Of a stretch of 64,000 nucleotides of DNA, positions 6,291 to 58,530 are shown piece after piece. Below the pieces are notes generated by a model. It was not told the DNA's origin and did no database searches. It saw only the letters and a list, made by a program, of their open reading frames with translations. Position numbers and translations under genes: made by a program. The DNA is from a virus: the IMG/VR virus record IMGVR_UViG_3300050120_000135. One strand, written 5' to 3'. Each line of letters starts with the position of its first letter. The stretch's first letter is position 1.

Positions 6291-6299
6291 ACCGACCCC

Positions 6300-10240: not shown

Positions 10241-10440
10241 GCCCTGCGCTCGTTGAACAGAAACTGGTCTAGCCTGGTCGCTACCGCGATGACCTTCTCG
10301 GCCAGGGCCTCGACTTTGCCACCTAACGTCTTGTTCTCCGACAGCAGCCGCAATCGCTCGCGCTCTTGCCATATCACGGCTCCCATCAGCAGCGGCGAGA
10401 TATAGGCGCCCGCCTCTTTCGCCCATGCAATCCAATCCAT
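10237..10440 (-). CDS. small membrane/coiled-coil protein (lysis-associated?)
   Basis: 67 aa. An N-terminal hydrophobic segment is followed by a charged helix. Confidence 0.55.
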   Translation of the reverse strand: MDWIAWAKEAGAYISPLLMGAVIWQERERLRLLSENKTLGGKVEALAEKVIAVATRLDQFLFNERRA

Positions 10441-10473
10441 AGGCCGCCGCCTTTGCTGTTGGCATTTGCGCCG

Positions 10474-11210: not shown

Positions 11211-11239
11211 TTTCTCCCCGTTAGATTTTCGATTGAAAG

Positions 11240-32983: not shown

Positions 32984-34072
32984 TCAGATGCCGATCATGC
33001 TGGCGATGGCGAACGGCTGACGGATAACCGCGCCGAGCGTTCCGCCGACCATCTTCTGCTTGTAGCTCGACAGGTCGGGGATCAGCCGGCCAGCGCGCAT
33101 TTTTACGTTGTAGGCGACGAAGCCGGTCTTCTGGCTGCGGACGTCGGTGCAGATCAGCTGCGCGAAGTTGCCGCCGACAACACCTTGCGGGTTGCTTGCC
33201 GACTGAATGCCGTACTGCACCGCAGACACGATCTTCAGGTTCGGGAAGTTCTTCGACAACAGGTCCGACACGTTGACGTCGAACGAGTTAGTCGCGGTGA
33301 TGGCGCCTTCGGAGATCGGCGACAGCGCGAGCACGAAGTTCGACTTCACGTTGATATTGCCGCCGGCCTGCTGGATCAGCTGCAGGGCGAGCGACTGGAT
33401 ATCGAGGAAGATCTCGTTCGGGGTCGCGGTGATGACGTTGTTCGTCACCCACTGGTTATTGCCGTAGGCCTTCGGCGACGGCGTGATAGCCGCCGTCAGG
33501 TTCGGATCGTTCAGGAAGCCGTAGTTCTGAAGACCGGCGATGCCGAAGAAGTAGCTCTGGTTCTGGAACCGGTTGATGGCCCAGGCCGCAGCCGCGTTAA
33601 GCTGGTTCAGCCAGTTGATCTTCGCGAGGCCGACGACATCGAGCTCGCGATCGCCGTACTGCAGGATCGTCTGGAACAGGAACGGCTGGCGCGAGGGGAA
33701 GTTCGTGTTCGCGTTCACCGACCCGTTGTTGCTGTAGTCGCCATAAGCCGACGTCTCGCCCGTGTGCTCGACGGTCGGGAACATGACCGAGTTCAGCGTC
33801 CAGTCGCCCTTCTGGACTTCGTCGAAGATCGACTTGGCTTCAAGCGGCGAGAATAGAATCTCGTACACCTGCGGGTCGATCATCGTCGACAGCCACACCG
33901 GAATGCCGGTGTTCGGCGTGGTCGTCAGCTGCGGCTGCGCGTCCATCGCCATGCCGATGTCTTCGGACCATCCGTCGGGCACATAGTGACGGACGTCGGG
34001 AAAGACGGCACCGAGCGCTTCGAACCTGCGCTTGTCGCCGGTGAACTGCGTGCGTGCTTCGATCAAATTCAT
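32984..34072 (-). CDS. major capsid protein (DUF2184-like / HK97-fold)
   Basis: 362 aa. Position follows the protease/scaffold and decoration-like genes. Family recalled from the N-terminal and GDYSNNG region. Confidence 0.8.
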   Translation of the reverse strand: MNLIEARTQFTGDKRRFEALGAVFPDVRHYVPDGWSEDIGMAMDAQPQLTTTPNTGIPVWLSTMIDPQVYEILFSPLEAKSIFDEVQKGDWTLNSVMFPTVEHTGETSAYGDYSNNGSVNANTNFPSRQPFLFQTILQYGDRELDVVGLAKINWLNQLNAAAAWAINRFQNQSYFFGIAGLQNYGFLNDPNLTAAITPSPKAYGNNQWVTNNVITATPNEIFLDIQSLALQLIQQAGGNINVKSNFVLALSPISEGAITATNSFDVNVSDLLSKNFPNLKIVSAVQYGIQSASNPQGVVGGNFAQLICTDVRSQKTGFVAYNVKMRAGRLIPDLSSYKQKMVGGTLGAVIRQPFAIASMIGI

Positions 34073-34178: not shown

Positions 34179-35156
34179 TTAGATGACGTTCGAGACCTTG
34201 ACGATCTCGCCGTTGGCGCCGGCCGACTTGGCGATCCACTTCGTCTCGATCGCGTTCTGCGACGTGATGGCGGTGGAGCTGACGACAGTGTTGCTGTCGA
34301 CCACATAGGTACCAGCCGCGCCGGTGGTGCCGGTGAGCTGCTGGTAGACCTTGGTGCCAGTGTCGACACCGGATCCCGAGATGGTTTGCCCGCCAGCGAA
34401 GCCGCTGACCACGGTGCCGCCGACCGTCAGAATGCCGTAGGTACCGGTCAGCGTGGTCGAGGCAACCGTCTGTTCCGGAATCGAGAGTGCATAGGTGCCC
34501 TTGAGTCCGAGGGTGCCGCCCGTTTCGGTCGACGTCAGCTGCTCTACGATCTTCGTGCCGCTCGCCGCACCGACGACGGTCGCGCCGGCGTACAGATTGC
34601 CGGAGCCGACCGCGGTCACCGTCATCACGTTGCCGGCGATCGAGCCGGTGACGGAGAACGTGCCGGCAGCAACCGACGATGCCGAGCCTGAGCCGCCGGG
34701 CGGCGTCGCGCCGGCAGCTGCGAAGTATGCCGTGCCATCGGCGAAGTTCGCGAACGCCTTCATTCCGACCTGCGCGAGCGTGGCGCCGGTGTTCCTGATC
34801 CAGAAGTCGCCGTTGTTGAAAACGACGGCCTGCTGGCCCTTCAGAAGCACAAGACTCGCGGTCGCGAGGTAGGGAGTGATGAGACCGATCTGCTCGCGGT
34901 GGATAAGACCAGCGGGCAGGCCGGAACCGAACGTGTCGACGATCGCGGGCGCGTTGTCGTTGTCGACGCGCTCGTAGGACAGCCACGCGAAGCGGCCGAC
35001 CACGATGCCGTTGACGAGAGCACCAGCAATATAGCCATTGCCGGAAACGAGCGCGCCTTCACCGGCGAGCACGGTGCCGCGCGGGTTGGCCGAGGCAAAG
35101 TCGCCTTCGACCGCCGGGGCCTGCATGGTGTTAACCTGGTTGGGAAAGTCGGTCAT
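34179..35156 (-). CDS. head structural/decoration-like protein with two TGSIAG-type modules
   Basis: AGGAGA lies 7 nt before the ATG (the first M in the track is TTG). 325 aa. The C-terminal half holds two tandem about 60 aa repeats. Confidence 0.7.
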   Translation of the reverse strand: MTDFPNQVNTMQAPAVEGDFASANPRGTVLAGEGALVSGNGYIAGALVNGIVVGRFAWLSYERVDNDNAPAIVDTFGSGLPAGLIHREQIGLITPYLATASLVLLKGQQAVVFNNGDFWIRNTGATLAQVGMKAFANFADGTAYFAAAGATPPGGSGSASSVAAGTFSVTGSIAGNVMTVTAVGSGNLYAGATVVGAASGTKIVEQLTSTETGGTLGLKGTYALSIPEQTVASTTLTGTYGILTVGGTVVSGFAGGQTISGSGVDTGTKVYQQLTGTTGAAGTYVVDSNTVVSSTAITSQNAIETKWIAKSAGANGEIVKVSNVI

Positions 35157-35183
35157 CAAAGTGTCTCCTGGTTTCGATTTTCA

Positions 35184-35241: not shown

Positions 35242-37398
35242 TCAGCCCGCCTTACGGACCTTGGCAGCGTTCGGGAAGCGGCTGTTGAAGTCGCTGGTGG
35301 TGGCGCTGTCCTGCGCGATCGTGGCGTGCTGGCGCGCGCCAGGAGCCGGGATGGCGTCCCACAGGGCCTGCAGCGCCGGGAGCTCCTTGATCTTGGAGAC
35401 GTCGCGGTCCTGCATTTTGAACGCCTGACGATAGACGCCGTCGGCGCTGTCGAAGGCCATGTCGAGAACGCCGACGATCGGCTGCACGTGCGCCTTGGCC
35501 GCGGACACCGCGTTCATGCGCGCGATCGTGGCGTCGGTGTTGGCCTTCAGCGCCGCGTCCATCGCGCCCTTCGACACGAAGTCGGGCTTTTTCTTCTTTC
35601 CGTCGGGCCCGGCTTCGGGTTCGACAACAACGCCATCCTTGGCACCAGCCTTCGCCAGAGCCGCGGCCTTCGCGGCCTCGTCGTCGGGATCGCCTTCGCC
35701 CATGCCGGGCATGCCGGCAATCACGTCGTCGGGGACGCCCTTTTCCTTCAGGTAGGCACGCACGGCCTCCATGGGACCGCCGGCGTCCATCGACGTATCG
35801 TCGCCGTCGATATCGTCGTCGCTGTCGAGTTCGTTCGGGTCTCGCTCGAGGTCGCTATCCTCGACGGTCTTGTCGCCGTCGATCGACGCCATCAACTTCT
35901 CGACGCCCTCGATCACGCCGACCAAGTCGCCGTCCTGCGCCAGCTTGATCTTGCCAAGCGACTTGCGCAGCGCCTTGATGAAGTTCGGAGTCGACTCCTT
36001 GAACTTGCCGGGCTCGAACGTGCCGAGCGCGCCGGCGATATTCGGCATCGCTGCGTCCATTGCCAGCCGCGGCCGCAGGAACGCGGTCAGAGCGCCATAC
36101 GCAACGGTCGCCTTCATGCTCTTGAGTGCCATCTTCATAGTCTCCTGTTGGGGTTGCAGTGCTTCGTCAAGGGCGACGTCCGAACCGGCTCGTCCCTTTT
36201 TAACCAGGCAAACATGGTTTCCGACCATGTTGCGCATCACGCCGTCGTAGGGTTCGCCCTCGTAAGTCCCCGGCGTCATGTCCGCGTCGTATGAATAGGC
36301 GCTGGACAATTCTTTTTGCTTCTTGCTGTCGACGTGATCGCGGCCGTCGCGCGACCAGACTGCAAGGCTGTTGAACAGATACGGGTGCTGGTACTCGGCT
36401 TCGGAGCCGACGGTGCCGACCGTGATATCGCCATCGTGCTCGTCGGCCGAATGCGGCACGTGTCGATCGAGCAGCGGCAGATTGTGAAACGTCGAGGCTG
36501 CCTTCTTGATCTCGTCTGGATGGCGCAGCAACCGGTAGACCCTGCCGGGATCCAGGCCGAGCTCGTTACCCTTCGGGATCTCGCGGCCGTAATACGGATT
36601 GATGCCGGCCTTGGTGATCGGCGCGCGCTTGACGTGCAGCCGCTCGAACCCGTCGACGTTGCGGCCCTGCGACGTGTCTCGATCGAACGCCAGCTTGACC
36701 AGCACCCCCCGGCGCAGATCCTCCAGCCCTTCCGGCGCCCGGTCGAACGCCAGCTCCGGACCGCGGATGCCGGCGATATCGGCCGCCAAAGCGGCGAACG
36801 CCGCGTCCATGGCGCCAAGGCCGGGCTTCATGGGCCAATCGTTCGTGGGGGATATCCCCGACCCGCCGCAGCCAGCGCACCCACGGCCGTTACAAGCTGC
36901 GTGGACGCCGTCCTGCGCCGTATCGTCGGGGTCGTCGATCGCGGCCCACTCGGCAAGTTCCTCGCCGTCGGTGACATTTCGCTCGTCGATCGTCTTCAGC
37001 ACCGCCGGATGCATGGGCTTGGGCAGCATGTCGATCATGGCCCACGTGTAGCCCGTATGCTCGCCGTCGTTCAGCAGCGGAGCGAAGCGCTCGTCGACCG
37101 CCTGCGCGAACGTATGAAACACCATCCCGTTCGGGGTCTTGCGCTGGTCGAGCAGCCGGCGATCGCCGATCGGCGCTGTGCCACCGGTTTCCTCGGCCGC
37201 CTCGCGCTCCGCGCCGCGCAAGATGGACTCGCCGTCGTCGACCTTGCCACCAGGCAGGCACCAGTGCCCCGCATAGTTCTCCTCGGCCGGCGATCGGTGC
37301 AGGAACAGCATCGAGCCGTCCGGCGCCACGAACAGCGTACCCGCGGCATGGCCTTTCGCGCCGGCCTGGTCGACCAGCTGCGGCTTCTTGATCGCCAT
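35242..37398 (-). CDS. Nudix hydrolase fused to DUF2213-like prohead protease/scaffold protein
   Basis: GAGGTG RBS before MAIKKPQLV. Perfect Nudix box GGKVDDGESILRGAEREAAEETGG. The middle region (PITKAGINPYYGREIP...LSSAYSY...YDGVMRNMVGNHVCLVKKGRAG) is DUF2213-like. The C-terminus is acidic and helical. Confidence 0.85.
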   Translation of the reverse strand: MAIKKPQLVDQAGAKGHAAGTLFVAPDGSMLFLHRSPAEENYAGHWCLPGGKVDDGESILRGAEREAAEETGGTAPIGDRRLLDQRKTPNGMVFHTFAQAVDERFAPLLNDGEHTGYTWAMIDMLPKPMHPAVLKTIDERNVTDGEELAEWAAIDDPDDTAQDGVHAACNGRGCAGCGGSGISPTNDWPMKPGLGAMDAAFAALAADIAGIRGPELAFDRAPEGLEDLRRGVLVKLAFDRDTSQGRNVDGFERLHVKRAPITKAGINPYYGREIPKGNELGLDPGRVYRLLRHPDEIKKAASTFHNLPLLDRHVPHSADEHDGDITVGTVGSEAEYQHPYLFNSLAVWSRDGRDHVDSKKQKELSSAYSYDADMTPGTYEGEPYDGVMRNMVGNHVCLVKKGRAGSDVALDEALQPQQETMKMALKSMKATVAYGALTAFLRPRLAMDAAMPNIAGALGTFEPGKFKESTPNFIKALRKSLGKIKLAQDGDLVGVIEGVEKLMASIDGDKTVEDSDLERDPNELDSDDDIDGDDTSMDAGGPMEAVRAYLKEKGVPDDVIAGMPGMGEGDPDDEAAKAAALAKAGAKDGVVVEPEAGPDGKKKKPDFVSKGAMDAALKANTDATIARMNAVSAAKAHVQPIVGVLDMAFDSADGVYRQAFKMQDRDVSKIKELPALQALWDAIPAPGARQHATIAQDSATTSDFNSRFPNAAKVRKAG
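36979..37353 (-). other. Nudix domain of the protease/scaffold fusion
   Basis: The Nudix box lies at 37180..37251 (Gx5Ex7REUxEExGU fully satisfied). Confidence 0.85.
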
Positions 37399-37548
37399 CG
37401 GGCACCTCATGGAATTGGTGCCGGCGGGCGGGGCTAACCCACTCTGCGCGCCCCGTCGGGCCTCGCCGGCAAAGCCTGTGCGCGTCACGCGCGGCTGAAG
37501 TGAGGAAGCACCAAGCCGCCGTCTAAGCCGGCGAACCGGCCACGCACA

Positions 37549-37986
37549 TTACCTCAGAATATCAACCTTCAGGATAACCCCGGTCTCCCGGCGCCCCTGT
37601 CGCGCAGCTATCGTGCGCATAGCCTTATTGTTGACGTGCGTCGCCGACTGAATCGAGCGGACGTTCGGCAGGCCCTGCGCGTGACCGACTAATTCGTTCC
37701 ACATCGCGCTGTAGACGCCGCGACCGCGGAATTCCGGCAGGACGTAAGACTGATGCACCCAAATTCGCGCAGCATCGACGTCCCACGTGATGACGCCGAC
37801 AGGCAGGACGTCGCGACCGTTCTGCGCATAACCGACAAAGGCGTTCAGATTTGCGCCCATGTTCAGCTCGCCGTCGCTGAGACCATTCTCGACGTTTTCA
37901 AGCCACCCACGAACCGCGAGCTCGGCCGCCGGCGTGCTGTTGATGCCCTCGATCAGCTCGACGCGCAACGGTACCGGTAGGTTCAT
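37549..37986 (-). CDS. GNAT family N-acetyltransferase
   Basis: 145 aa. VHQSYVLPEFRGRGVYSAMWNELV...NNKAMRTIAARQG is the acetyl-CoA binding core. Confidence 0.8.
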   Translation of the reverse strand: MNLPVPLRVELIEGINSTPAAELAVRGWLENVENGLSDGELNMGANLNAFVGYAQNGRDVLPVGVITWDVDAARIWVHQSYVLPEFRGRGVYSAMWNELVGHAQGLPNVRSIQSATHVNNKAMRTIAARQGRRETGVILKVDILR

Positions 37987-38366: not shown

Positions 38367-38558
38367 TCAGCCTGCGTTGTCGCGGTGCTGCACGACGACG
38401 GCGCCGCTGCCCTGCATGCGTTCCATGTTCTCGCGGTGCGATCGCTTGTCGTTGCGGTCGATCAGCCGATAGACCACGACGGCGATCGTTAGGCCCACGA
38501 CCATTGCCGCGATCGGCCAGCTCTCCGAAATAATCTTCAGCGCTTCCATCCTGCTCAA
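38367..38558 (-). CDS. small single-pass membrane protein (63 aa)
   Basis: TM helix WPIAAMVVGLTIAVVVY. Confidence 0.55.
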   Translation of the reverse strand: MSRMEALKIISESWPIAAMVVGLTIAVVVYRLIDRNDKRSHRENMERMQGSGAVVVQHRDNAG

Positions 38559-38899
38559 TCCTGCGTTTCGTGGGCGAAGGGATCGGCAACATGCTCCGGA
38601 ATCGGCGGCATGGCAACTATGTCCGAGCGCCCGTGCCAGCTATCGCAGCAGAATTGAATGCGACCGTCGGCAATGATGTAGTGGCAAACCAGGTCCCGTT
38701 TGCTCTCCCGCGCTTCGGCCGAGCCCGGCTCTCCGGGCCATCGGGCGAATGTCTGCTTGAAGCTCGGTTCGAACGACGGGCGCGTGACGTTGCCGTTGAA
38801 CTTCCATCCGTCAGGCAGCGGGTGCATTTCCTCGCACGCCGGGCACCAGTGAAAATACCGGCTCCGGCCTCGACGAAGGATGGCGCTGACCTGGCTCAT
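38555..38899 (-). CDS. Cys/His-rich protein (114 aa), DUF6527-like, paralog of next gene
   Basis: HWCPAC...WKFNGNVTRPSFEPSF...CHYIIADGRIQFCCDSWHG. Confidence 0.6.
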   Translation of the reverse strand: MSQVSAILRRGRSRYFHWCPACEEMHPLPDGWKFNGNVTRPSFEPSFKQTFARWPGEPGSAEARESKRDLVCHYIIADGRIQFCCDSWHGRSDIVAMPPIPEHVADPFAHETQD

Positions 38900-39207
38900 G
38901 CCTTCAGCTCCGGCTCGTCCGTCTTCTGCACCGAGACACAGCGGCCGGCTTCAATATAACCGTGCCAGCATCCATTGCAGTTGATCGACGGCGAGAATGT
39001 CGGCTTATCGCGATCGCCGTTCCAGTCCCACTGCGCGATACCGCCGTTCAACCCTTGGCCGTCGCGCTTCAGCGACGTCTTGCCGGCGATCACGAGACCC
39101 TCGCAACGATGGCCGCGCAGCGGGCACTTAAATCCGAATCGCTGCTCTTGACCTGGTGTTGCGGGTTCGAAGTCGATCGTCTCGAACTGCACCTTGGCGT
39201 CGCTCAT
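38896..39207 (-). CDS. Cys/His-rich protein (103 aa), DUF6527-like
   Basis: WDWNGDRDKPTFSPSINCNGCWHGYIEAGRC. ATGA-coupled to the MuF gene. Confidence 0.6.
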   Translation of the reverse strand: MSDAKVQFETIDFEPATPGQEQRFGFKCPLRGHRCEGLVIAGKTSLKRDGQGLNGGIAQWDWNGDRDKPTFSPSINCNGCWHGYIEAGRCVSVQKTDEPELKA

Positions 39208-40031
39208 GAGAACCCCGCAATAACCGAGATCGAAACGCACCGGCAGTTCGGCAGCTCGCCGGGGATGATCCACTTCTTGACGTGCGGGTCGAACCAGCCT
39301 TTAGCGACGTCGTACAGCTTGCCGTTGTTCGCAACATGCGTCGGCCGCGGATGCTTGCCGGCGCCGCTATGGCGCCACTTCGCCTTCGTGATGCCGAGCT
39401 CCGTCTGCCGCGCGCGGTTCATGGCGCTGGTGGCAAGATTGTTCTGGCTCCTCGCAATGAACGCCGCGCGCCGTTTCGTGACGCCGTAGTTTTTCTCCAG
39501 CTCCTTCGCCAGATAGCCCATGTCACGGCCGCGCTGAACGGAGCGCATCACCATGCCCTCGACGTTCTTCAGGTACTGCTCCGGAATCGACTTGATGAGC
39601 GCTACGTTCTGCGCGCGGGTTGCGTTGAAGACGTCCCGCATGGGGCGCGTCATCTTGAACTTCACGCTGAAGCCACCGTCTCGCAGGATTTTGCGCAGCG
39701 CCGCGTCAGTGCGATCGCTCACCGCTCCCGTGAAGAAGTCCGCCAGATCCCACGCTGCTCGATCGAAGTTCTTCTGCCACCGGCGCACCAGCGCCCGGAT
39801 GGTCCGCGTGAGTTCGTTCGCCGGCAGGATATCGTCCATCGCCAGCAACGGCTCGTTGTTCTTGTAGCGCTTCAATACCCAAAACCTAACCGAGCGGTCC
39901 ATTTCCGCGATCAGCTTCTCCAGCTTCACGCGATAGGCGGCCTGCAAGCCTGCGTTCGGGTGCAGCGGCCGGAGAACGATCTCCTTGCCGCGAACCGGCT
40001 TGACTTCAGTTGCTCGAAACGTCCCGTGCAT
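39204..40031 (-). CDS. phage head morphogenesis protein (Mu F / SPP1 gp7 family)
   Basis: C-terminal KWRHSGAGKHPRPTHVANNGKLY...IPGELPNCRC. The start is uncertain (the ORF extends to 40130). Confidence 0.8.
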   Translation of the reverse strand: MHGTFRATEVKPVRGKEIVLRPLHPNAGLQAAYRVKLEKLIAEMDRSVRFWVLKRYKNNEPLLAMDDILPANELTRTIRALVRRWQKNFDRAAWDLADFFTGAVSDRTDAALRKILRDGGFSVKFKMTRPMRDVFNATRAQNVALIKSIPEQYLKNVEGMVMRSVQRGRDMGYLAKELEKNYGVTKRRAAFIARSQNNLATSAMNRARQTELGITKAKWRHSGAGKHPRPTHVANNGKLYDVAKGWFDPHVKKWIIPGELPNCRCVSISVIAGFS

Positions 40032-40212
40032 CGAGCTCTCCCGCGATCGAGCGCATCTCGCTGCGCGTCTGCTCGGCGATCGACAGCCCCTTGCGAATTG
40101 CGGTGCGCGCCTGGTCAGGGTGACCGCCATCGAAATGCCTGGCTGCAGTCTCGAACAGCTTCTTCACCTGGTCGACGTAGCCGGCGTCGATCGCGTCGGC
40201 CGCGCTAACCAT
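40006..40212 (-). CDS. hypothetical protein (68 aa)
   Basis: ORF track entry. Helical composition. Confidence 0.45.
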   Translation of the reverse strand: MVSAADAIDAGYVDQVKKLFETAARHFDGGHPDQARTAIRKGLSIAEQTRSEMRSIAGELDARDVSSN

Positions 40213-40878: not shown

Positions 40879-43800
40879 TCAGACTTCCTGCAGCACGATG
40901 TTGTTGCCGCTGCGCGAGACCACCTTGAACCTCGAGCCGGACTTGAACAGAACCTCGGCCTCGCTCGGGTGCGAGGACAGCTTCTGAATGTCCTTACCAT
41001 TCTTGCCGTGAACGGTAAAGTTGTGGTCTCCGGACCACGTCCCCTGATTTTTGCTCGTGCTCATGAAGCCACGCTCCTCGACCACGTAGCCGACTTCGTA
41101 AAGCGCTGACTGCTGACTATCGAGCGATGCCTTTCGATAGGTCGTCTCGTTGTGCGACGGCAGCTTGTCGAGACCGGCGTTCAGCGAACGCCTGAACTTG
41201 TCCTGTGCTTCGGTCATCTTGCCCGCGCGCAGCTGGTTGTTGACCGAGACGTAGTGCGAGCCACTGTAAGCGATGATCGGCACCGCATCAGCGGCCGTCA
41301 TGTACTTCGTCAGGCCCGCGCTCTTGACCTTGTTGAAGGCGGACTTGATGTACGCTTCGCTCGCCTTCGCCCCGCCGAACATCGCCTCGGCCGCCTCATA
41401 GTGCAGCTTCAGCGCCGGATCTTTGTCGAACTCGGCCTGGAGCTCGGCTTTGTCCTTCGCCAGCTTTGCCTCGGCTTTTTTCTTGGCGTCCTCGACTGCC
41501 TTCTTCTCGGTTGCGGCCTTCTCGGCTTTCGATGCGGAATCGTACTCGGCCTGCACCTTCGGCAGCATCGCCGTCAGGTCCTTGTAGTCCTGCACCTTCT
41601 GGTTCAGCTGCTCCGGCGTGAGATCGTTCTTGCCAGCGTACTTGTCGTTGAACTCCTTGATGAGCGTCACGCCGGCGGGTGCGCTGGTGCTGATCGGCAG
41701 CGTGGTCGACTTCGCGGCCTTCTTCAGCTCGGCCTCGGTTGCCTTCGGCGCCTTCGACTTTTCGCTGATGGCGCCGGGCGCCACCTTCGCGATCGCGGCC
41801 TTGCCAGCGGGAGAAGCAGCGTCGACGAACTTCTCGGCCCATGCCGGATTGTACTTCAGCAGGCCCTCGATCGCGTAGGCGTCCTTTTTGTCGACAGCGT
41901 CGGCGATCGCGCCGAGAAACGCGGGGTAGTCCTTCGGCGGCGTGTACGTCGCGCCCTCGGCCGGCTTCGGCGCTTCATTCAGCTTCGGCGCCGGCTTGCC
42001 AGCCATCGCAGCGAGACCCGCGTCCGCCTGCTTCTTCTCGGCGACCTGCTTGCTGATCTTGTCCTGCTGCGCGGCCTTTTCCGCTGCGAGCTCCTCGGCC
42101 GACATCTTCGTACCGAAATACTTGCCGTCCTTTTTCTCCAGCTTCATGCCGAGCGACTTGGCCTGGGCCGGCATCGAGACCGACGGCCAGCCCATGGTCG
42201 TCATCAGCTCCTTCGGTGTGACGCCGTTGGTCAACAGGTGCGCAATGTGTTCCTTCTTGGTCTTGAACTGCGATGCGGCAGCCTTCGACGCGTTCAGCGC
42301 TGCAGTGTCCGGATGATCGGGGTGACCGGGCAACAGCAGGTTCTCGAGCTCGTCGACGCTGTTGTCTTCCTTCTTCGCAGCGCCGGAGCCACCACCAGAG
42401 CCGAATTTACCATCCGGACTGCGCGGGTGCTTGCTCTCGTCGAACTGGCCCTCGTCCATAGCGAAGACGTCGGGTGCTACCTCGGTCATACCCTCGTCGT
42501 CGTCGCCCGCAAGCGGGCTGAACAGAATGTCCTGCGCGCGCTCGCCCTTCTTCTTGCGTCGGCGCATCGCTGCGATCGGAATGCCTGCGCTCGGCGCGGT
42601 AACGAGCTCGGCCTGGTCGAGCGCTGCCTCCATGATGGCGACGTCAGCGTCTTCGTCCTGCGCGATCGAGAACCGCCTCGCCATGTCCTGCTTGCGCGCG
42701 ATCAGCCGATCGGCCAGCGCCTTGTCATCACCGACGGCGCTCCGGATCTTGTCGTCGGGTATCGACGTGACGCGCTCGATCGAGGACTTCAGGTCCGCGT
42801 CCGACATCGAGCCGAACAGCCGGGCAGCGTCCGGCGACATGCTCTTGTCGCGCATGGTGTCGAGCTCGGTCACCTTGTCGCCGAACGCGTTGCCCTTCGG
42901 GCCGCCCTGTGCGCGGTATCGCAGCGAACCGCCGACGTCGAGCGTGTGCGGCTTGCCGGCCATCATGCCTTGGTTATCACCACCGGTGCCGGCAGCATCC
43001 CAATTCGACAACCACGCGTGCACGGCGAAGTCGGCAGCTGCTGCCTTCTTCTCCTCGGCCGAGAATTTGCTGATGTTGTTCTTGTCGAGGTCCTGCCACG
43101 CAGTCACGACGTGATCGGGCCCGGCCTCGCGATAGTCCAGCGTATTGACGCCGGCCAGCTTATACAGCTTGGCCGCGGTCTTCTCGTTGGTGACGTGGTC
43201 TTTGGTGGCGGGCTTCTTGACGTAGAACTTCTCGCCCGCGTCGTTGGCGTAGACGCCGCCCTCGTTGCTACCGAGCTTGCCGCCCTGCTTCTTCAGCTTC
43301 GACACGTTCAGCGGGTAAGACGAACTCTGCGAGGACCGCGACGCACCGGGCTTTGTCGATCGCGACTTGCCAGCCGTCGACGACTTCAGCGTCGTACCAC
43401 CGCCCCCCGACCCAAACTTGCCGTCGTCCGCTCGTGGATGGTCGCCTTCGGTCCATTCGTCACCTGCCAGTGCGGCCTCGATCATGGCCTCGTCGGTTGC
43501 GACCGTGCGGTCGGGCTCCTCGCCCCCGCCTTCTCCACCACCGTCCCCGCCGCCGCCAAACGGGTCTTCACTGCCGCCTGTCGGCTGCTCCGGCACGTCG
43601 TCGGGGTTGATATCCGAATACCGCGAGTCCGGCTGCGCGGCAACGGCCTTGCGAACCTCGCCCGGGTCGAGCACGCCGCTATCAATGCGGACCTGGTCGG
43701 TCTCGGCTTCGATCTTGTCAATCTCGGCCTTCTCCTTGTCGGTCATCGACCAGAGCGGCTCGAACTCGAACGTGATCTCCTCGTCAATCTCGCCCCACAG

Positions 43801-45333
43801 GTGGAGCATGATGAAGTGAATGCACGCCTGCAGCTGGTCGCGGAAGAACGATTCCTGGTAGGCGTGGATCCAGTCGTAGAACGCCCTGATCTCGCCCTCG
43901 GACGACGCGTTCAGCCCGGTCGGCGTAATGCCGAGCAGGATGATCAGCGGAATGCCCGACACCGACGACATCTGCTCCTGGCTTTGGGCCTGCAGCGCGT
44001 CGAGCGTGCCGAGCGGCGTCGAGACGTTGAAGAACTCCTCGGTATCCTTGTCGAGCGCGAACGCGCCGGCGTTCGAGCGCATAACGTTGAACAGTTCGAT
44101 GCGCTTTAGCGCTTCGACGCCGCCCTCCTGCAGGGAGCCGGCCATGTTCATATAGACGCCGCTGACCGAGAATGACTCGATCAGATCGGCCACCGCCTGC
44201 CTGGTGCGCAGCCAGTTGTCGACGTAGGGCTTCGCCATCTGCGACATCGACAAGCCGCCGAATGCATAGGCGGGCTTGAGAATGTCGGGCACTTCACGGC
44301 CGACAAAGCACATGAGACGCGAGCGATGGACTTCGATTCCGTTCGCGTACCAGCGATCGGGATTGTAGAAGCCCTCGCGCAGCGGGTTAGCGGCCTCGTA
44401 GGTCGCCGGATAGCACCACATCGGCTCGACACAGCGGAACGCCTTGATCGAGCCCTTGTGCACCTTGCCGCGGCTCGTGGCATTGCTGCCATTGCCAATC
44501 GACGACTTCAGCTCGACGTCGGCCTCCCTGCTGTCGTGCTTGAAGAACCGACCAGCACGCGGCTTGATGTCGATGAACAGGTGATATCGACCGAACCAGC
44601 CATCGCCCTCGGCGATATTGTAGAAGGCGTCCTTGAGCTTGAACTTGCGCATCGCATCTTCAAGTTCCTTGATGCGCTTCGCCTTCTCGGCGCTGGCTTT
44701 CGCCGCAACCGACTTCTGCACGCGGTCACGATCGGCCTGCTTCTGCTCTGCCGCCGTTGCGGCCGCGGCCTCCGGACCTTCGCCCGCCTCATCATCGAGC
44801 GGGTCGGCGCCGGCGGTCTCCTCGGTCAGCTGCTGGTCGGTCTCGCCAGTGTCCGCGCTGGTGGCGCTGACGACGTTCAACTTGATCCACTTGCGCGTCA
44901 TCTCGGTCGCAATGCGTTCCGAGATACGACGGTACTCCGGCCGCTGCGTCAGCTGCGCCAGATACGAATAGCCGATAAAGCCGATGCCTTCTTCGAACAG
45001 CGCACCGTCGCCACCGCCCCATTGCATCAGGCCTGCGAACGCGGTGCTGCCGAGCGCCTCGTCCAACGCCATCGGTTTGGTGTTCTTCGGCAGCACACCT
45101 GGCGGTGGCTCGAACGGCTGGAACGGGTTAGTGCCGGCGAACCCCGCAGCCTTCTTGCTCGCGCCTGCAGGCCTCAGCCGACGCGCATGCTCGATGACAG
45201 TGTCGCTGATTTTGAGCGGCTTCTTCTCGGCCGCGGTCGTTGCCGGCGCAGCTGCCTTCGCGCGCGCAGCCACCTTGGCCTCGCGCTTCGCACCCGCGCG
45301 ATTGAACCCGACGGGCAGCCTCGTCACTGTCAT
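40879..45333 (-). CDS. portal protein fused to a kinase-like domain and a C-terminal ADP-ribosyltransferase toxin domain (polyvalent protein)
   Basis: 1484 aa, ATGA-coupled to TerL. aa about 85-560 are portal-like (DUF1073/HI1409-like by recollection). aa 675-870 are kinase-like. aa 1340-1484 are ART-like: AYSGSHYVSVNNQLR, TTYRKA, FMSTS, SEAEVLF. Confidence 0.9.
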   Translation of the reverse strand: MTVTRLPVGFNRAGAKREAKVAARAKAAAPATTAAEKKPLKISDTVIEHARRLRPAGASKKAAGFAGTNPFQPFEPPPGVLPKNTKPMALDEALGSTAFAGLMQWGGGDGALFEEGIGFIGYSYLAQLTQRPEYRRISERIATEMTRKWIKLNVVSATSADTGETDQQLTEETAGADPLDDEAGEGPEAAAATAAEQKQADRDRVQKSVAAKASAEKAKRIKELEDAMRKFKLKDAFYNIAEGDGWFGRYHLFIDIKPRAGRFFKHDSREADVELKSSIGNGSNATSRGKVHKGSIKAFRCVEPMWCYPATYEAANPLREGFYNPDRWYANGIEVHRSRLMCFVGREVPDILKPAYAFGGLSMSQMAKPYVDNWLRTRQAVADLIESFSVSGVYMNMAGSLQEGGVEALKRIELFNVMRSNAGAFALDKDTEEFFNVSTPLGTLDALQAQSQEQMSSVSGIPLIILLGITPTGLNASSEGEIRAFYDWIHAYQESFFRDQLQACIHFIMLHLWGEIDEEITFEFEPLWSMTDKEKAEIDKIEAETDQVRIDSGVLDPGEVRKAVAAQPDSRYSDINPDDVPEQPTGGSEDPFGGGGDGGGEGGGEEPDRTVATDEAMIEAALAGDEWTEGDHPRADDGKFGSGGGGTTLKSSTAGKSRSTKPGASRSSQSSSYPLNVSKLKKQGGKLGSNEGGVYANDAGEKFYVKKPATKDHVTNEKTAAKLYKLAGVNTLDYREAGPDHVVTAWQDLDKNNISKFSAEEKKAAAADFAVHAWLSNWDAAGTGGDNQGMMAGKPHTLDVGGSLRYRAQGGPKGNAFGDKVTELDTMRDKSMSPDAARLFGSMSDADLKSSIERVTSIPDDKIRSAVGDDKALADRLIARKQDMARRFSIAQDEDADVAIMEAALDQAELVTAPSAGIPIAAMRRRKKKGERAQDILFSPLAGDDDEGMTEVAPDVFAMDEGQFDESKHPRSPDGKFGSGGGSGAAKKEDNSVDELENLLLPGHPDHPDTAALNASKAAASQFKTKKEHIAHLLTNGVTPKELMTTMGWPSVSMPAQAKSLGMKLEKKDGKYFGTKMSAEELAAEKAAQQDKISKQVAEKKQADAGLAAMAGKPAPKLNEAPKPAEGATYTPPKDYPAFLGAIADAVDKKDAYAIEGLLKYNPAWAEKFVDAASPAGKAAIAKVAPGAISEKSKAPKATEAELKKAAKSTTLPISTSAPAGVTLIKEFNDKYAGKNDLTPEQLNQKVQDYKDLTAMLPKVQAEYDSASKAEKAATEKKAVEDAKKKAEAKLAKDKAELQAEFDKDPALKLHYEAAEAMFGGAKASEAYIKSAFNKVKSAGLTKYMTAADAVPIIAYSGSHYVSVNNQLRAGKMTEAQDKFRRSLNAGLDKLPSHNETTYRKASLDSQQSALYEVGYVVEERGFMSTSKNQGTWSGDHNFTVHGKNGKDIQKLSSHPSEAEVLFKSGSRFKVVSRSGNNIVLQEV
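40882..41316 (-). other. ADP-ribosyltransferase (R-S-E, C3/VIP2-like) domain of the portal fusion
   Basis: Arg in TTYRKA, the STS motif in GFMSTS, and ExE in PSEAEVLF, in canonical order and spacing. Confidence 0.8.
42724..43311 (-). other. protein-kinase-like domain of the portal fusion
   Basis: GSNEGGVY (Gly loop), FYVKKP (Lys), NEKTAAKLY (Glu), HAWLSNWD (catalytic-loop-like) and LDVGGS (DFG-like). Resembles atypical actin-fragmin/PI-kinase-like kinases. Confidence 0.5.
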
Positions 45334-50465: not shown

Positions 50466-50908
50466 GAAAAGCAACCTGCCAACACTGCGGCGGACCAAAA
50501 GACCGGCGCTCTATTCAGTGCCGCGCATGCAAAGACATGCCGGCGTCGATGACAAAAAGGCCGCATAGCCCCGGAGGCCTGACGACGGACGAGGAGCCCG
50601 GAGCAATTATCTGCTCCGGGCTTTTTCTATGGTGCCGCGGGCCGCCTCGCGCTGGCTTCCCGCGGTCTCGACCGTGCGCCCGGCCGCGAGCCTACTACCG
50701 GATTGTTTTATACCTTCGCCCCGCCGGTTGCGCGTCCAGTGGCAGAGCATGCGAACCCGGATTCGCTTGGCAATCATGCAGCCTTGCGGCTGCGCTCTTT
50801 GACGACCTGCTCGAACGTCTTCTTCGTGCCCTGCAGCATCGCCTTCTTGCCGGTGAACTTGCACCATCGGCGAACCGCGGCATCGATATAGTGCGGCGAC
50901 ATCTCTGA
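50462..50908 (+). CDS. small CxxC protein; 3' end unreliable (frame runs through a terminator)
   Basis: ATGA-coupled MRKATCQHCGGPKDRRSIQCRAC... There is no in-frame stop before 50908, although a strong terminator sits at 50595-50628. Confidence 0.3.
   Translation: MRKATCQHCGGPKDRRSIQCRACKDMPASMTKRPHSPGGLTTDEEPGAIICSGLFLWCRGPPRAGFPRSRPCARPRAYYRIVLYLRPAGCASSGRACEPGFAWQSCSLAAALFDDLLERLLRALQHRLLAGELAPSANRGIDIVRRHL
50595..50628 (+). terminator. rho-independent terminator of the 48285-50590 plus-strand operon
   Basis: AGCCCGGAGC-AATTATCT-GCTCCGGGCT followed by TTTTCT. Confidence 0.7.
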
Positions 50909-52111
50909 TCCGAAACAGGCGATGCCCTTGCGCTCACACGCGATCAGCGAAGATCCGCTCCCCAAAAACAAATCCAGATAGGATTGCGCTTTGGGAGCAA
51001 TTGTCTCGATGACCCACTCGACCAATGCGACCGGCTTTTGTGTCGGATGGACTCGCTTCTCGCCGCGCTCCGAAGCCTTTATCAGGCCCGACCATTGATG
51101 ATGAAAGATGCGCGCTATCGCATCTTGATTGGTCCAGGCCAACTCGACATCAGCGAAGCTGCCGGTGTTCTGCTTGTCCCACACGAGCCAGCATCGAGAC
51201 GCCGGAAGTTCGTTCGCGAAATAGTTGCCGCCCCACAGCACAATCGCTGGGATTCCGATCTCCGACATTAAAGCAAAACTTCGGATGGCAGTCTCGGTCG
51301 TGTCATCGCCGATGATCGGCGCGTAAACCCCGGGCTTGATTATCGCGTTTCGCGCCGGAGCATGTACGGTCCTGCGCAGCGCGGGACCGAGGCGGGCCTG
51401 TCCGTGAACATTGCCCTTCTTACCGAATGCCTTCGGTCCACCGTCGGTGGACCGCTTGACGATGCTGATGCCATACGGCGCATCGCAATTAGCAAGCTGC
51501 GGCTTCTCACCATCCAGCAGATGCTTGACCTGATCGATGTCGAGACTATCGCCGCAAAGAATCCGATGTTGCCCGCACAACCAGATGTCGCCCAGCTTCG
51601 ATATCGCGACAGGCTGCGGTTCGATCTCCTCATCCGGATCAGATTGAGGAGCCGCCGCGCCGACTCCGAAGGTCGCAAGCCTGATGTCATCGAACCCGGT
51701 CAGGTGCAGCGGATAGTCCACCTTCGCGAGTTGCGTGAGGTTGATGCGAAGCAACGTCTGATCCCAGGTCGAATTTTGCGGGATTTGATTGTCCGCGATC
51801 ACGTAGGCGCGCTTCTGCGCGGCCGACCATCCTCTCGCCACCACCACCGGGACTTCGGTGATGCCAAGCTTCTCGGCCGCCGTAACGCGACCATGCCCGG
51901 CAATGATTCCGTTGTCCTCGTCGATTAGCACCGGGACTGTCCAGCCCCACTCCCGCATCGAGGCCGCGATCTCGGCAACCTGCGCATCCGAATGGAGTCG
52001 CGGGTTGTCGGGGTAGACTGTCAGGTCGGTGACAGCCCGGCGCTCGATCTTGTCCGCTGGCCATCGCTCTGACGGCTTGATAGGCTTAGTTTTTGCTTTA
52101 GGTGAAGCCAT
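50774..52111 (-). CDS. ParB-like nuclease domain fused to beta-class N6A/N4C DNA methyltransferase
   Basis: 445 aa from MASPKAK. ParB motif IIAGHGRVTAAEKLG. Motif IV is DAPYG and motif I is DLFLGSGSS (order IV then I). Confidence 0.85.
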   Translation of the reverse strand: MASPKAKTKPIKPSERWPADKIERRAVTDLTVYPDNPRLHSDAQVAEIAASMREWGWTVPVLIDEDNGIIAGHGRVTAAEKLGITEVPVVVARGWSAAQKRAYVIADNQIPQNSTWDQTLLRINLTQLAKVDYPLHLTGFDDIRLATFGVGAAAPQSDPDEEIEPQPVAISKLGDIWLCGQHRILCGDSLDIDQVKHLLDGEKPQLANCDAPYGISIVKRSTDGGPKAFGKKGNVHGQARLGPALRRTVHAPARNAIIKPGVYAPIIGDDTTETAIRSFALMSEIGIPAIVLWGGNYFANELPASRCWLVWDKQNTGSFADVELAWTNQDAIARIFHHQWSGLIKASERGEKRVHPTQKPVALVEWVIETIAPKAQSYLDLFLGSGSSLIACERKGIACFGSEMSPHYIDAAVRRWCKFTGKKAMLQGTKKTFEQVVKERSRKAA

Positions 52112-52760
52112 GAAAACCTGCGAATGCGGCTGCGGCGCCGAGGTGAATAACCGGTTTGTGGTCGGCCACAACGGCGGCAGACCGGGAGAACGAAAACCGC
52201 GCACCATCTTTATCTGCGAGCACTGCGGCGAGGAATTCCGAGTTCTGATGCACCCAAATAATCAGAGGAAAGCCTGTCGATTTTGCTCTCACAAATGTCG
52301 GGACAATTTTCGTCGCGCTCACAAGGGCGCCGAGCATCCCAATTACAAGCGCACCGAGATTAAGTGCTCAGTTTGCCCAACCAAATTTTGGGCAACAGCG
52401 ACGATGATAAAAAACAATGCGACGTGCTCAAAAGAATGCGGTCGCATCGCTCATGATCGCCAGCTAGTCGGTAAGCACCCCCAGCGAATAAAACCGGACT
52501 GGCGCAACGAGGCTAAAAAACGCGATGGGTTCAAGTGCCGCATCTGCGCGTTTTCTGAGGTCATTCACGTTCACCACATCCAACCGAAGCGGTCAGGCGG
52601 CAAACACGAACTCGCCAATCTGATAACACTTTGCCCTAACCACCATGCGATGGTGCACGCGGGCATGATAACTGCAGAACGGCTGGCTGCGGTGATCGCC
52701 ACGCCTTTGCCAGATCAGACCGAGATGCCACTTGGCCGGGTCATCAATTTCCGAAAATAG
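52110..52760 (+). CDS. HNH endonuclease with N-terminal Cys-rich repeats
   Basis: 216 aa. FKCRICAFSEVIHVHHIQPKRSGGKHELANLITLCPNHHAMVH. Lower GC than the flanks. Confidence 0.85.
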   Translation: MKTCECGCGAEVNNRFVVGHNGGRPGERKPRTIFICEHCGEEFRVLMHPNNQRKACRFCSHKCRDNFRRAHKGAEHPNYKRTEIKCSVCPTKFWATATMIKNNATCSKECGRIAHDRQLVGKHPQRIKPDWRNEAKKRDGFKCRICAFSEVIHVHHIQPKRSGGKHELANLITLCPNHHAMVHAGMITAERLAAVIATPLPDQTEMPLGRVINFRK

Positions 52761-56046: not shown

Positions 56047-58530
56047 CTAGAACGGCGGAAGATCGTCTTGTGACTCGCCCGGCGCCAGCAACATCGGCTG
56101 CTCCTTTTTCTTCTTCGGCGGCGCCGGCCACTGCAAGCCTCTACCATAAACCGGCCGTCCTGTCGGCCAAACGTAATGGATCATCTTAGGCTTCGAAATA
56201 TCGTCGTTGACAGCGTCGGGGTCCGGCATTTCCGCAATCGCGATCATGTTGTACTTGATGAGCTCCTCGCGGAACCTTCGAACGCGTTGCTTCAGCCGCG
56301 TGCGGTATTTTTCCAGCGATTCGTCCGCGTCCTGCGGATCGGTCTTTTTGTATTCGAGGCCGAGCTCGGTCCACTTGATGACGGTCGCAACCGACGCCGG
56401 AAGACCGAGCACAGGCGGCGGTGGCTTGCCAACATGCTCCATCGCTTTCAACAGCGCGCGGAACACGTCGACGTTGTTGCCCTTCAGCGCGAAGCCTGCA
56501 GGCCGCGGCTTGCCGGCTGCCTCGTCCGCGACTTCGCGCGGCACGTGGCCGGCAGGCTCGACCGATACCATTGACGTAATGTCGTCGCCGTCCTCGTCGA
56601 CTCCAATCTTGACCGACTGCAGAACGAATTCCCACGACGTGCGGTCGTCGCCCTCGCGCTGCTTGCTGATGCGGCCGCGGCGGATAACTCGACCATCCTC
56701 GTCGCGCTTCTCGACCGTGTGCTTGGTATCGGTGTAGACGCGCTCGATCAGGATTGCGGTCTCAATGTTGTTAAAGAACTGCTCGTTGCCGCGGTGGCGC
56801 CCTTCGGCGTTCGTGTGGCCGATGATGATCAGCGGTGCACCGGCGCGCTCCTTCACGACGTCGTAGTTCGACATAATCTTGTTCATGTCGTCGGACTTGA
56901 TCTCGCTCGAACCGCGCGTGGCGCTGTTGTGCGTATCGACCACGATGCCGGCCAGCGGGAGTCTAAACGACTCCGAGATATTCTTGATCTCTTCGGCCAG
57001 CGCGACGACGTTGTCCTCGCTCGCGAACAGGTTCGGCGGCCGGGTCAACCAGGCGAACGAGTGCAGATCTTCGATCTTCATCTCGTGATGGCGCAGATAC
57101 GCACGCAAGCGGTTCTCGAACCCGGTCGCGCCTTCATAGGTGAGATAGACATAACCGCCCGGGATGACCTTGCGGCCGGCGAACGGTTCGCCCTTCATGA
57201 CGTGCATCAGCATATCCAAGCACTCGAACGTCTTGCCCGATCGGCTCGGCCCCATCAGTAGCGCGTTATCGCTCATGGGCAGAATGCCCTTGATGCGCCA
57301 CGGATAGGCGCGCACGGCGCCGCCTAGATCGGTTGCGGTCTTCGCTCCGAACTTCGACACATACGGCGCCGGCGTCCATGGCTTCAGGCCGTCGACAATC
57401 TCCAGCAGCTGATCTTTCGTCCCACCGGCAACGTCGCGCCAGTCCTTGACGTCGCCCTTCACCGGACACGCCGGCCACACGTCGCGGAAGTTCAGAACCT
57501 GCACGAGCTCGACGCCGACGGCCTTTAACATCGGCGCGATCTTCGCCACGCGCTCGGCGCCGGCGCGATCGTTGTCGGCCAGGATGACGACATGCGCGGC
57601 ATTCCGGAAGAACTCGGCGCATGCCGGCGTGAAGTTCTTAGCGCCGCCGGAGTTGGTGACCGCGAGCAGCCCCCATTCCTTCAACACGTCGACCTTGGCT
57701 TCACCTTCTGGAATGAAGATGGTGCGCTGGTCTTCCTTCGGCTCCTGCAGTTCGTCGATCGCCGCGTTCGCGTTGTAGAGCCAATGCTCGACGTTGCCGA
57801 GCTGCTCGAACGTGCGCCGCGTGATGTTAGTCCACTTCAGCCGGTCTTCGGTGACGCGCAGCCACGGCGAATTGGCCGTCTTCAGGAATTCGAGCGGCGC
57901 GTGCGGCTCCTCGCGGTCGATGACGTCGAGGCCGAGAATCCAGTTGCCCTCGCCGTCAGGCCGGCGGTGCAGGAAGGTTTTCCATGGCTTGCCGTCCTTC
58001 GTTCGGAATGAACCGTCCGGCATGCGTTCCTGCATGCGCACGACCTGATAGAGCAGCGTGTTCTCCGGGTCGACGTAGTCCCACGCCTTTACGACTTCTC
58101 GCTTAGGGCGAACGCCTGCCACACCATCGTTAGGCCGATTGTCTCCAGGTGCCTGCGGACCCGGGTCTCCGCTTTCGTGATCTCTAGGGTCGGATGCCTG
58201 TGCATTTCCAGGTCGATCAGACGAAGCAGCAGGCCGTCGAGCTCCGTCTTTGAGGGAGATTCCTGCGCGGTGCGCGAGTTCCTCGACCGCTTCGACGAAG
58301 CTGCTGCAGCCGCCGTGCTCTTGCATGAAGTCGAAGATGTCGTGCGGCTTGCCGTCCCCGCCTTTTCCGAACTCGCACCAGAACTGCTTTTGATCGTTGA
58401 CCGTGAACGACTCGTTGTCCTTGACGACATATTCGGACCCCTTCCGGATCAACGGGAAAACCGAACCCACGACTTCGCTGACCTTGATGCGGTCCTTGAT
58501 CTCGTCAAGCTGGCGCTGCTCGAATGCCAT
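56047..58530 (-). CDS. bifunctional primase-helicase (Toprim + RecA/DnaB-like AAA_25)
   Basis: 827 aa. Toprim motifs IFIPEGEAKVD...VVILADNDRAG. Walker A GPSRSGKT. Confidence 0.9.
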   Translation of the reverse strand: MAFEQRQLDEIKDRIKVSEVVGSVFPLIRKGSEYVVKDNESFTVNDQKQFWCEFGKGGDGKPHDIFDFMQEHGGCSSFVEAVEELAHRAGISLKDGARRPAASSDRPGNAQASDPRDHESGDPGPQAPGDNRPNDGVAGVRPKREVVKAWDYVDPENTLLYQVVRMQERMPDGSFRTKDGKPWKTFLHRRPDGEGNWILGLDVIDREEPHAPLEFLKTANSPWLRVTEDRLKWTNITRRTFEQLGNVEHWLYNANAAIDELQEPKEDQRTIFIPEGEAKVDVLKEWGLLAVTNSGGAKNFTPACAEFFRNAAHVVILADNDRAGAERVAKIAPMLKAVGVELVQVLNFRDVWPACPVKGDVKDWRDVAGGTKDQLLEIVDGLKPWTPAPYVSKFGAKTATDLGGAVRAYPWRIKGILPMSDNALLMGPSRSGKTFECLDMLMHVMKGEPFAGRKVIPGGYVYLTYEGATGFENRLRAYLRHHEMKIEDLHSFAWLTRPPNLFASEDNVVALAEEIKNISESFRLPLAGIVVDTHNSATRGSSEIKSDDMNKIMSNYDVVKERAGAPLIIIGHTNAEGRHRGNEQFFNNIETAILIERVYTDTKHTVEKRDEDGRVIRRGRISKQREGDDRTSWEFVLQSVKIGVDEDGDDITSMVSVEPAGHVPREVADEAAGKPRPAGFALKGNNVDVFRALLKAMEHVGKPPPPVLGLPASVATVIKWTELGLEYKKTDPQDADESLEKYRTRLKQRVRRFREELIKYNMIAIAEMPDPDAVNDDISKPKMIHYVWPTGRPVYGRGLQWPAPPKKKKEQPMLLAPGESQDDLPPF

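Follow-up and report, generated by a model that had tools for sequence, protein, structure and literature searches.

In a 64,000-nucleotide stretch of viral DNA (IMG/VR record IMGVR_UViG_3300050120_000135; this whole stretch is referred to below as the window), a single open reading frame (ORF) of the head module joins a Nudix hydrolase domain to the N-terminus of a prohead protease and scaffold protein. The family of Nudix-protease-scaffold fusions to which it belongs is widespread in uncultured phages and prophages. We found in it conserved catalytic residues, a protease-like fold, an over-represented candidate cleavage motif (A-x-D) and a variable N-terminal slot; the N-terminal ~200 amino acids appear, judging from sequence, to make up a catalytically competent Nudix pyrophosphohydrolase. 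We propose, with chances that we judge to be about even, that the product is a three-part head protein whose Nudix cargo is packaged by way of the protease-scaffold, freed by cleavage at A-x-D sites and ejected into the next host. The features of the gene, together with one site in the major capsid protein, are as follows:

35242..37398 (-), full ORF, 718 amino acids plus stop, 76.8 kDa: Nudix domain, linker, assemblin-like protease (DUF2213/Pa193_gp24) and scaffold tail
37403..37408 (-), Shine-Dalgarno sequence GAGGTG, with a 4-nucleotide spacer to the ATG at 37398
36979..37353 (-), Nudix fold, residues 16-140, from Pfam, an AlphaFold2 model and Foldseek
37180..37248 (-), Nudix box, residues 51-73 (GKVDDGESILRGAEREAAEETGG), with E57, R65, E66, E69 and E70 invariant in the family
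37132..37134 (-), Pro89 in the X-loop (T88-P89), 16 residues after the box (Gly73), nearly invariant (at least 90%)
36643..36978 (-), linker, residues 141-252, with a Cys/Gly knuckle at residues ~166-180 and three conserved A-x-D sites
36682..36813 (-), predicted cargo-release sites AMD198, AFD219 and AFD239, from motif over-representation and family conservation
36166..36642 (-), putative prohead serine protease domain (DUF2213), residues 253-411, from Pfam, model and invariant residues
36460-36462 (-), His313, invariant in 87 sequences
36304-36306 (-), Ser365, invariant in the same 87 sequences
36214-36216 (-), His395, likewise invariant in the 87 sequences
36142-36146 (-), internal AGGAG, followed by the in-frame ATG codons of M421 (36136-36138) and M423 (36130-36132)
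35242..36132 (-), scaffold region, residues 423-718, 31 kDa, isoelectric point (pI) 4.9; contains six more of the conserved A-x-D sites and is homologous to the C-terminal part of Pa193 gp24
33941..33949 (-), predicted maturation site A42-M-D44 (MAMD↓AQP) of the major capsid protein

The reading frame is uninterrupted across all 718 residues, and the start at MAIKK, which a preliminary description of this DNA had placed behind GAGGTG, indeed has this ribosome-binding site at a proper distance. The Cys/Gly linker (ACNGRGCAGCGGSG) and the acidic, scaffold-like tail (residues 490-614, pI 4.1) reported in that description are also present, and PHROG 2229, "head maturation protease", spans residues 235-715 (E 3e-108). 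Homologs were collected by a word-indexed search of 5.8 billion proteins, which returned 1284 matches. Of the best 120 matches, which were examined, about 100 combine PF00293 with PF09979 in a single protein (33-77% identity). None of these ~100 fusion homologs departs from the strict Nudix box G-x5-E-x7-RE-xx-EE-x-G, which sits at the identical residue number (51) in the close homologs P0002-P0005. The fusion is also found in prophages of the cultured strains Rhizobium sp. BK591, Bradyrhizobium sp. LjRoot220, B. oropedii Pear76, Paraburkholderia tuberum STM678 and Rhizobium freirei PRF 81. The earlier claim that one ORF joins Nudix, protease and scaffold is thus borne out.

An artefactual fusion, generated by a missed stop, a frameshift or a true start codon downstream of the Nudix region, has next to no probability. 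It could draw on two related loci, L026 and L028, where Nudix lies on an ORF of its own that overlaps the scaffold ORF in another frame. Against it stand the unbroken frame of the window gene, the good Shine-Dalgarno sequence ahead of MAIKK and the recurrence of the same fusion in over 100 assemblies that are independent of one another, finished bacterial genomes among them. An additional putative internal start does exist, but it sits after the protease domain and not after Nudix. Nor are the two parts always encoded by separate genes, with a sequencing-error stop here, as had been considered: about 100 of the best 120 homologs are fused, and a sequencing-error or frameshift origin was rejected on the strength of this survey. 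In L026 and L028, which come from two independent metagenomes, the related Nudix is part of a separate 517-residue ORF (8391-9941) that shares a 55-nucleotide overlap with the scaffold ORF (9887-11587); the arrangement might reflect either a cargo gene in its own right or a programmed frameshift.

The Nudix assignment itself is robust. Pfam NUDIX (PF00293) matches residues 18-132 with E 8.8e-16 (58.6 bits against a cut-off of 21.1), the AlphaFold2 model of the domain has a predicted local distance difference test score (pLDDT) of 90, and a Foldseek search with this model gave 623 PDB matches at E<=0.001, nearly all of the 50 listed being Nudix hydrolases. The box reads G51-x5-E57-x7-R65-E66-A-x-E69-E70-x-G72-G. 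The preliminary description had called it perfect; every catalytic residue is in place, but Ala67 and Gly73 occupy the two hydrophobic "U" positions, and so the box is better described as near-perfect. Outside the box, R35, F105, E113, W119, P126, H130 and P131 are invariant in an alignment of 82 sequences, a pattern that suggests an active enzyme under selection and not a decaying passenger.

The substrate class is much less clear-cut. Assignment to the RppH, ADP-ribose pyrophosphatase (ADPRase) or NudC subfamily, which the preliminary description had in view, was not obtained: no NCBIfam model passes its cut-off, the PDB sequence search gives weak matches, and in Foldseek DR1025, MutT, NudC, NrtR, NudI and RppH score about equally. 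The nearest NCBIfam models, NudG (31.2 bits against a cut-off of 156) and MutT (25.1 against 97.9), both remain below threshold, as do NudE (17.2 bits against 169) and NadM-Nudix (15.9 against 354); an equivalog-level ADPRase match (NudF, NudE or NadM) was not found. The best PDB match by phmmer is the weak, MutT/NudG-like hit to NudG 2rrk (E 5e-8), PADLOC returns a generic match only (candidate system PDC-S07), and a pairwise BLASTP comparison with T4 NudE produced no meaningful alignment (E 6). A proline about 16 residues past the box is typical of ADP-ribose pyrophosphatases (Dunn et al. 1999, reviewed in PMC5389931), and Pro89 may be taken as a weak hint, read off the sequence, in this direction. 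Genomic context, namely an ADP-ribosyltransferase (ART) sharing the polypeptide in some relatives, hints a second time at chemistry of nicotinamide adenine dinucleotide (NAD) and ADP-ribose. We speculate that the substrate is a compound of the NDP-X type (a nucleoside diphosphate linked to another moiety), most plausibly an ADP-ribose- or NAD-derived defence molecule.

The DUF2213-like core named in the preliminary description corresponds to a Pfam DUF2213 (PF09979) match at residues 253-411 (E 3.9e-42, 144.5 bits against a cut-off of 22). Its only solved homolog is Pa193 gp24 (PDB 9B40 chain G), to which the window protein is related both in its protease domain (E 6e-13) and in its C-terminal tail. 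An AlphaFold model of residues 231-430 (pLDDT 85) was compared with the PDB by Foldseek, and the 22 best matches were all herpesvirus assemblin proteases or T4 gp21 (best E 5e-4, probability 1.0). The three invariant residues His313, Ser365 and His395 form a candidate catalytic series in the order His...Ser...His, which matches that of assemblin, gp21 and HK97-type prohead serine proteases. On account of the model matches and these invariant residues we take DUF2213 to be a prohead serine protease that has the scaffold attached at its C-terminal side, in the manner of herpesvirus UL26. Since template modelling (TM) scores to the assemblins are low, 0.3-0.4, which counts against this assignment, we regard it as supported rather than proven. 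Pa193 gp24 has been described as a putative scaffolding protein; it was found in mature virions with liquid chromatography coupled to mass spectrometry (LC-MS), and its residues 286-326, a helix-turn-helix, stay under the five-fold vertices of mature virions (PMC11456595).

The pattern [LMIVAG]A.D[ASRGE] occurs 11 times in the window protein, where 1.65 +/- 1.2 copies are expected, and none of 2000 shuffled sequences reached this number. Nine A-x-D copies, with tripeptides starting at residues 196, 217, 237, 409, 446, 487, 612, 648 and 695, are conserved in the 120 homologs, and all nine fall in linkers or scaffold, outside folded domains. The motif recurs in other head proteins. The major capsid protein of the window has one copy, its A-x-D↓AQP site, which recurs in the capsid protein at nearly all of the 71 related loci examined, and the capsid proteins of Pa193 and E217 have an aligned SAMD64-S65, with atomic models that begin at residue 66; the site thus lies 1-2 residues ahead of the first modelled residue. 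In the window portal, A-x-D sites are found at residues 89-92 (MALD92), 612-615 and 891-894; the PB1 portal has VAMD76, and the first 93 residues of the Pa193 portal are missing in both density and LC-MS. Because A-x-D also precedes the mature N-terminus of the major capsid protein, it is probably a cleavage site, and we infer by analogy with T4 gp21 that the protease would cut after the Asp of (L/M)-A-x-D. Cuts at D198, D219 or D239 would then be expected to release a Nudix module of 21-25 kDa.

A further signal is found directly downstream of the protease domain, where an in-frame ATG preceded by GGAG/GAGG is conserved even though the encoded amino acids vary among loci. We counted this signal in 80 related ORFs (the window's own and 79 from other loci), with Shine-Dalgarno-like sequences sought between positions -16 and -4. 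GGAG/GAGG precedes the internal ATG in 63 of the 80 ORFs and a Shine-Dalgarno-like tetramer in 76; the corresponding frequencies at the remaining 1008 internal Met codons within these ORFs are 8.6% and 16.8%. The signal is also present in PB1 (L112, ~5700). Translation from M423 is predicted to yield a scaffold-only product of 296 residues.

The part of the protein that precedes the protease is variable across the family. Counted from the protease core to the C-terminus, most members measure a constant ~440-470 residues (a small number are truncated or longer). The N-terminal extensions, by contrast, span 52 to 732 residues, and P0044 and P0046 have none. P0007 and P0008, close relatives of the window protein (76-81% identical), have a short motif and a Cys knuckle at this place. 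In P0036, P0040 and P0041 the N-terminus is occupied by Acb1, an anti-CBASS nuclease (Pfam E 5.5e-30, both HxT motifs present); these sister phages are ~66% identical in scaffold (loci L003, L004, 10001-12001). The Acb1 swap suggests that the slot serves enzymes that destroy nucleotide immune signals. The portal of the Acb1-bearing sister phages is 1604 residues long and has a different, unannotated extension. Longer members of the family include combinations of Nudix with zeta toxin, and P0055 has Nudix and ART at the N-terminus. The portal of P0055's phage is plain (587 residues), the ART being borne by the scaffold protein instead; it follows that the portal C-terminus and the scaffold N-terminus act as alternative carriers. 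For P0088, precomputed Pfam labels place ParB-N beside Nudix, but a direct Pfam scan did not recover ParB-N.

A HMMER scan with the Nudix domain alone gave 866 clusters at 50% identity (E<=1e-10), of which the 134 best new representatives were classified. Ninety-nine carry the DUF2213 scaffold, four are C-terminal Nudix fusions of the portal, and the remainder are mostly short. In this sample the Nudix clade is thus almost always tethered to a head-internal protein. In multi-cargo scaffold proteins a DHPRxxxGxFGxG motif, which could be a linker or a processing signal, is seen between the cargo modules (P0055 at residue 200, P0073 at residue 279, P0088 at residue 206, and also P0096, P0101, P0103 and P0106); it is absent from the window protein. 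The idea, raised in the preliminary description, that fusion to a scaffold or protease is a route by which enzymes are loaded into procapsids gains in strength from the swapped effectors, the conserved A-x-D candidate cleavage motif of the linkers and the portal C-terminal fusions of this Nudix clade.

From these observations we infer a scheme comprising nested translation, cleavage, head retention and ejection. The C-terminal ~300 residues of scaffold would co-assemble with the major capsid protein inside the procapsid. The internal ribosome-binding site probably yields an abundant scaffold-only protein, so that the full-length cargo-protease-scaffold would be a minority species, like UL26 relative to UL26.5 or lambda C relative to Nu3. 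Once the shell has assembled, the protease would cut the (L/M)-A-x-D sites, thereby trimming the N-terminus of the capsid protein, fragmenting the scaffold and freeing a folded Nudix module of ~21 kDa, which has no conserved A-x-D site outside its folded core. The freed enzyme would stay in the head, leave it with the DNA at the next infection and hydrolyse an NDP-X compound before any phage gene is expressed. More broadly, and more doubtfully, the N-terminus of Pa193_gp24-type proteins might be a general cargo slot by which a large group of myophages from soil and rhizosphere preload swappable counter-defence enzymes (Nudix, Acb1, ART, zeta kinase), with copy number held low by the nested start and release at A-x-D, the Nudix clade being a hitherto uncharacterised, virion-delivered hydrolase of ADP-ribose-derived immune signals. 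This wider proposal is tentative.

Several observations weigh against the scheme. No Nudix-scaffold fusion was found in a cultured phage among 50,697 GenBank phage records: tblastn with the full protein matched 648 records via the DUF2213 part only, and with the Nudix part alone the best matches were stand-alone genes, 30-38% identical. Some relatives have a separate Nudix gene beside the scaffold gene (BCSR129, L026 and L028), and covalent fusion is therefore not essential. In the Burkholderia phage BCSR129 (L090, 66,147 bp), the nearest cultured case, a stand-alone Nudix of 142 residues (5986-6414, 39% identical to the window domain) is placed between an annotated "minor capsid protein" at the MuF position and a 454-residue ORF at the position of the DUF2213 gene, both identified by annotation or position alone; this layout may be the unfused precursor arrangement. 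A-x-D could be a scaffold-capsid contact motif instead of a cleavage site. In the PB1 ortholog, no A-x-D sites directly flank the ordered Pa193 gp24 fragment (286-326), which makes this fragment uninformative on A-x-D cleavage. The closest sequence matches of the Nudix domain are MutT/NudG-like and not ADPRases, and the released module would be acidic (pI 4.8), unlike the basic internal proteins of T4. Finally, experimental work on a packaged Nudix was not found in the literature on DUF2213, Nudix-scaffold proteins or virion anti-defence Nudix enzymes.

The genes around the fusion make up a standard myophage head module in the order terminase, portal-ART, MuF, GNAT, Nudix-protease-scaffold, decoration protein and major capsid protein. 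The neighbours relevant here are:

40879..45333 (-), portal, 1484 residues, with the portal domain at residues 123-547 and a 900-residue C-terminal extension ending in ART (PF03496, PF01129)
39204-40130, MuF
38555-38899 and 38896-39273 (-), two tandem small ORFs with DUF6527 (BubE in newer Pfam), between MuF and GNAT
37549-37986 (-), small GNAT acetyltransferase just upstream of the scaffold gene
34179-35159, XM1-gp53-like decoration protein
32984-34072, major capsid protein

The head module thus has, in the portal, a cargo carrier besides the scaffold protein. In the ORF list, the second DUF6527 ORF overlaps MuF at the latter's 3' end. Besides the window, three of the four related head modules examined (L001, L005 and L008) have a GNAT gene upstream of the scaffold gene, in some cases separated from it by one or two small ORFs. 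The GNAT match in L003 is weak, with a DUF6527 ORF intervening, and the Rhizobium BK591 prophage (L007) has none. Elsewhere, the window encodes a ParB-N domain fused to an N6/N4 DNA methylase (50774-52207, minus strand), a separate 644-residue protein containing ParB-N (4356-6290, plus strand) and a primase-helicase (56047-58530). The window, 61.7% guanine and cytosine, yielded no tRNA genes.

Since the window portal bears an ART, the Nudix domain could be the partner of this packaged enzyme, acting to convert ADP-ribosyl into phosphoribosyl marks on protein or nucleic acid, to remove free ADP-ribose or on the NAD-capped RNA used in RNAylation. ART and the Nudix clade share one polypeptide in 9-10 of 54 long family members, portal ART was detected in 3 of 13 Nudix-bearing IMG/VR loci and in about 3 of 50 Nudix-free ones (two ART queries, uncorrected for phylogeny), and the conserved X-loop proline agrees with such a substrate. 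However, in P0007's phage the portal ART occurs without Nudix; conversely, no ART was detected in the Rhizobium BK591 prophage or in most of the IMG/VR loci that carry Nudix. Each being found without the other, the link between them is facultative; obligatory coupling was rejected, and the earlier suggestion that Nudix trims the adducts made by the portal ART receives no backing from co-occurrence. We consider a partnership of this kind quite unlikely. An RNA 5'-end pyrophosphohydrolase or decapping enzyme of the RppH or NudC type, which would destabilise host transcripts on entry, is very unlikely. NudC and RppH do appear in the Foldseek list, among many equally scored matches, and there are weak NCBIfam matches to RppH and YtkD, but the scores lie far under the family cut-offs (21.5 against 116 bits), an RNA-binding extension is not evident, and the X-loop region lacks the NudC motif SQPWPFPxS, with GTAPIGDRRLLDQRKTPNGMVFHTF following the box.

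There is also the case to consider in which Nudix works only in the producing cell or in the procapsid, cleaning up the late nucleotide pool or destroying defence signals during assembly, and is lost or degraded after cleavage without ever being delivered. Expression together with the late structural genes, the MutT/NudG-type NTP pyrophosphohydrolases that are its nearest sequence neighbours, the acidity of the module and the related Nudix that stands free in the head module of some phages would all fit. Such a role leaves unexplained, however, why this clade is recurrently tethered to two different carriers inside the head, at the N-terminus of the scaffold in some proteins and at the C-terminus of the portal in others. 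Nor does it account for a slot that also takes Acb1 and ART, enzymes that are known or predicted to be of use early in infection. We regard it as unlikely, and prefer packaging followed by ejection into the next host.

Should packaging and ejection of the Nudix module indeed take place, the module would be the first experimentally tractable premade Nudix counter-defence enzyme to arrive with phage DNA. The N-terminus of the protease-scaffold would then be a rule-based slot, defined by a cleavage motif and a nested start, for loading arbitrary proteins, which would be useful for protein-delivering phages. The presence of Acb1 in the same slot offers a guilt-by-position route to new anti-defence enzymes, and prophage copies in cultured Bradyrhizobium, Rhizobium and Paraburkholderia make the idea testable. 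The family is large and wholly unstudied; to specialists it will be unsurprising after 2022, as it extends a prediction already in print.

That prediction is due to Iyer et al. 2022 (Viruses 14:1977, PMC9503650), who in one sentence and a figure report Nudix fused to MuF, portal and a capsid-processing serine peptidase, place the fused Nudix in a T4 NudE-like clade and infer computationally that such proteins are packaged in the head and injected against NAD/ADPr-based immunity. The preliminary description knew of no Nudix-scaffold fusion, but the concept is there, and the central idea has therefore already been published as a computational prediction. The packaging logic is the same for the window protein, which extends a known kind of head-packaged effector fusion; its Nudix, unlike the NudE-like domains of that report, has no BLASTP similarity to T4 NudE. 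A cleavage motif, a nested scaffold start, an Acb1 swap and experiments do not figure in the main text of PMC9503650, and in the literature that we searched we found no prior account of the A-x-D motif, the conserved nested start, the Acb1/Nudix exchange on a Pa193_gp24-type scaffold or the non-NudE-like character of the clade in pairwise comparison. The relevant parts of Iyer et al. 2017 (PMC5512222) deal with polyvalent and MuF- or portal-fused effectors. These share with the window family modular, rapidly exchanged effectors (ART, 2H/Acb1-like, ParB, zeta kinase) on a head structural domain; the head carriers there are MuF and portal, whereas the carrier here is the N-terminus of the protease-scaffold.

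With an effector covalently joined to a head domain in the late head module, the window gene fits the head-packaged effector fusions, of which we regard it as a new member with a reasonably well-supported mechanism of loading and release. Pa193 has the same gene order (portal, MuF, DUF2213 gene, decoration protein, major capsid protein), but its gp24 opens directly with DUF2213 and has no cargo, whereas the window protein carries an N-terminal Nudix. Its authors call gp24 a scaffold and do not discuss a protease, while the DUF2213 domain of the window protein models as one.

In herpesvirus UL26/UL26.5 and lambda C/Nu3, a protease-scaffold contains an in-frame internal start that gives an abundant scaffold-only protein, and linkers are cut after assembly. 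An N-terminal serine protease of assemblin fold is attached to the scaffold in these systems, as modelled for the window protein, which differs in having an extra enzyme upstream of the protease and in that its nested translation is a prediction from sequence alone. T4 Alt and IPI-III are loaded via the scaffolding core by a targeting peptide of ~10 residues, cleaved by gp21 and ejected with the DNA (summarised in PMC5512222 and PMC9503650). The loading and release proposed here are alike, down to a short motif that ends in an acidic residue, although the predicted P1 residue is Asp in the window system and Glu in T4, where gp21 cuts after Glu. The T4 targeting peptide is borne by separate proteins, whereas the cargo of the window protein is covalently part of the protease-scaffold.

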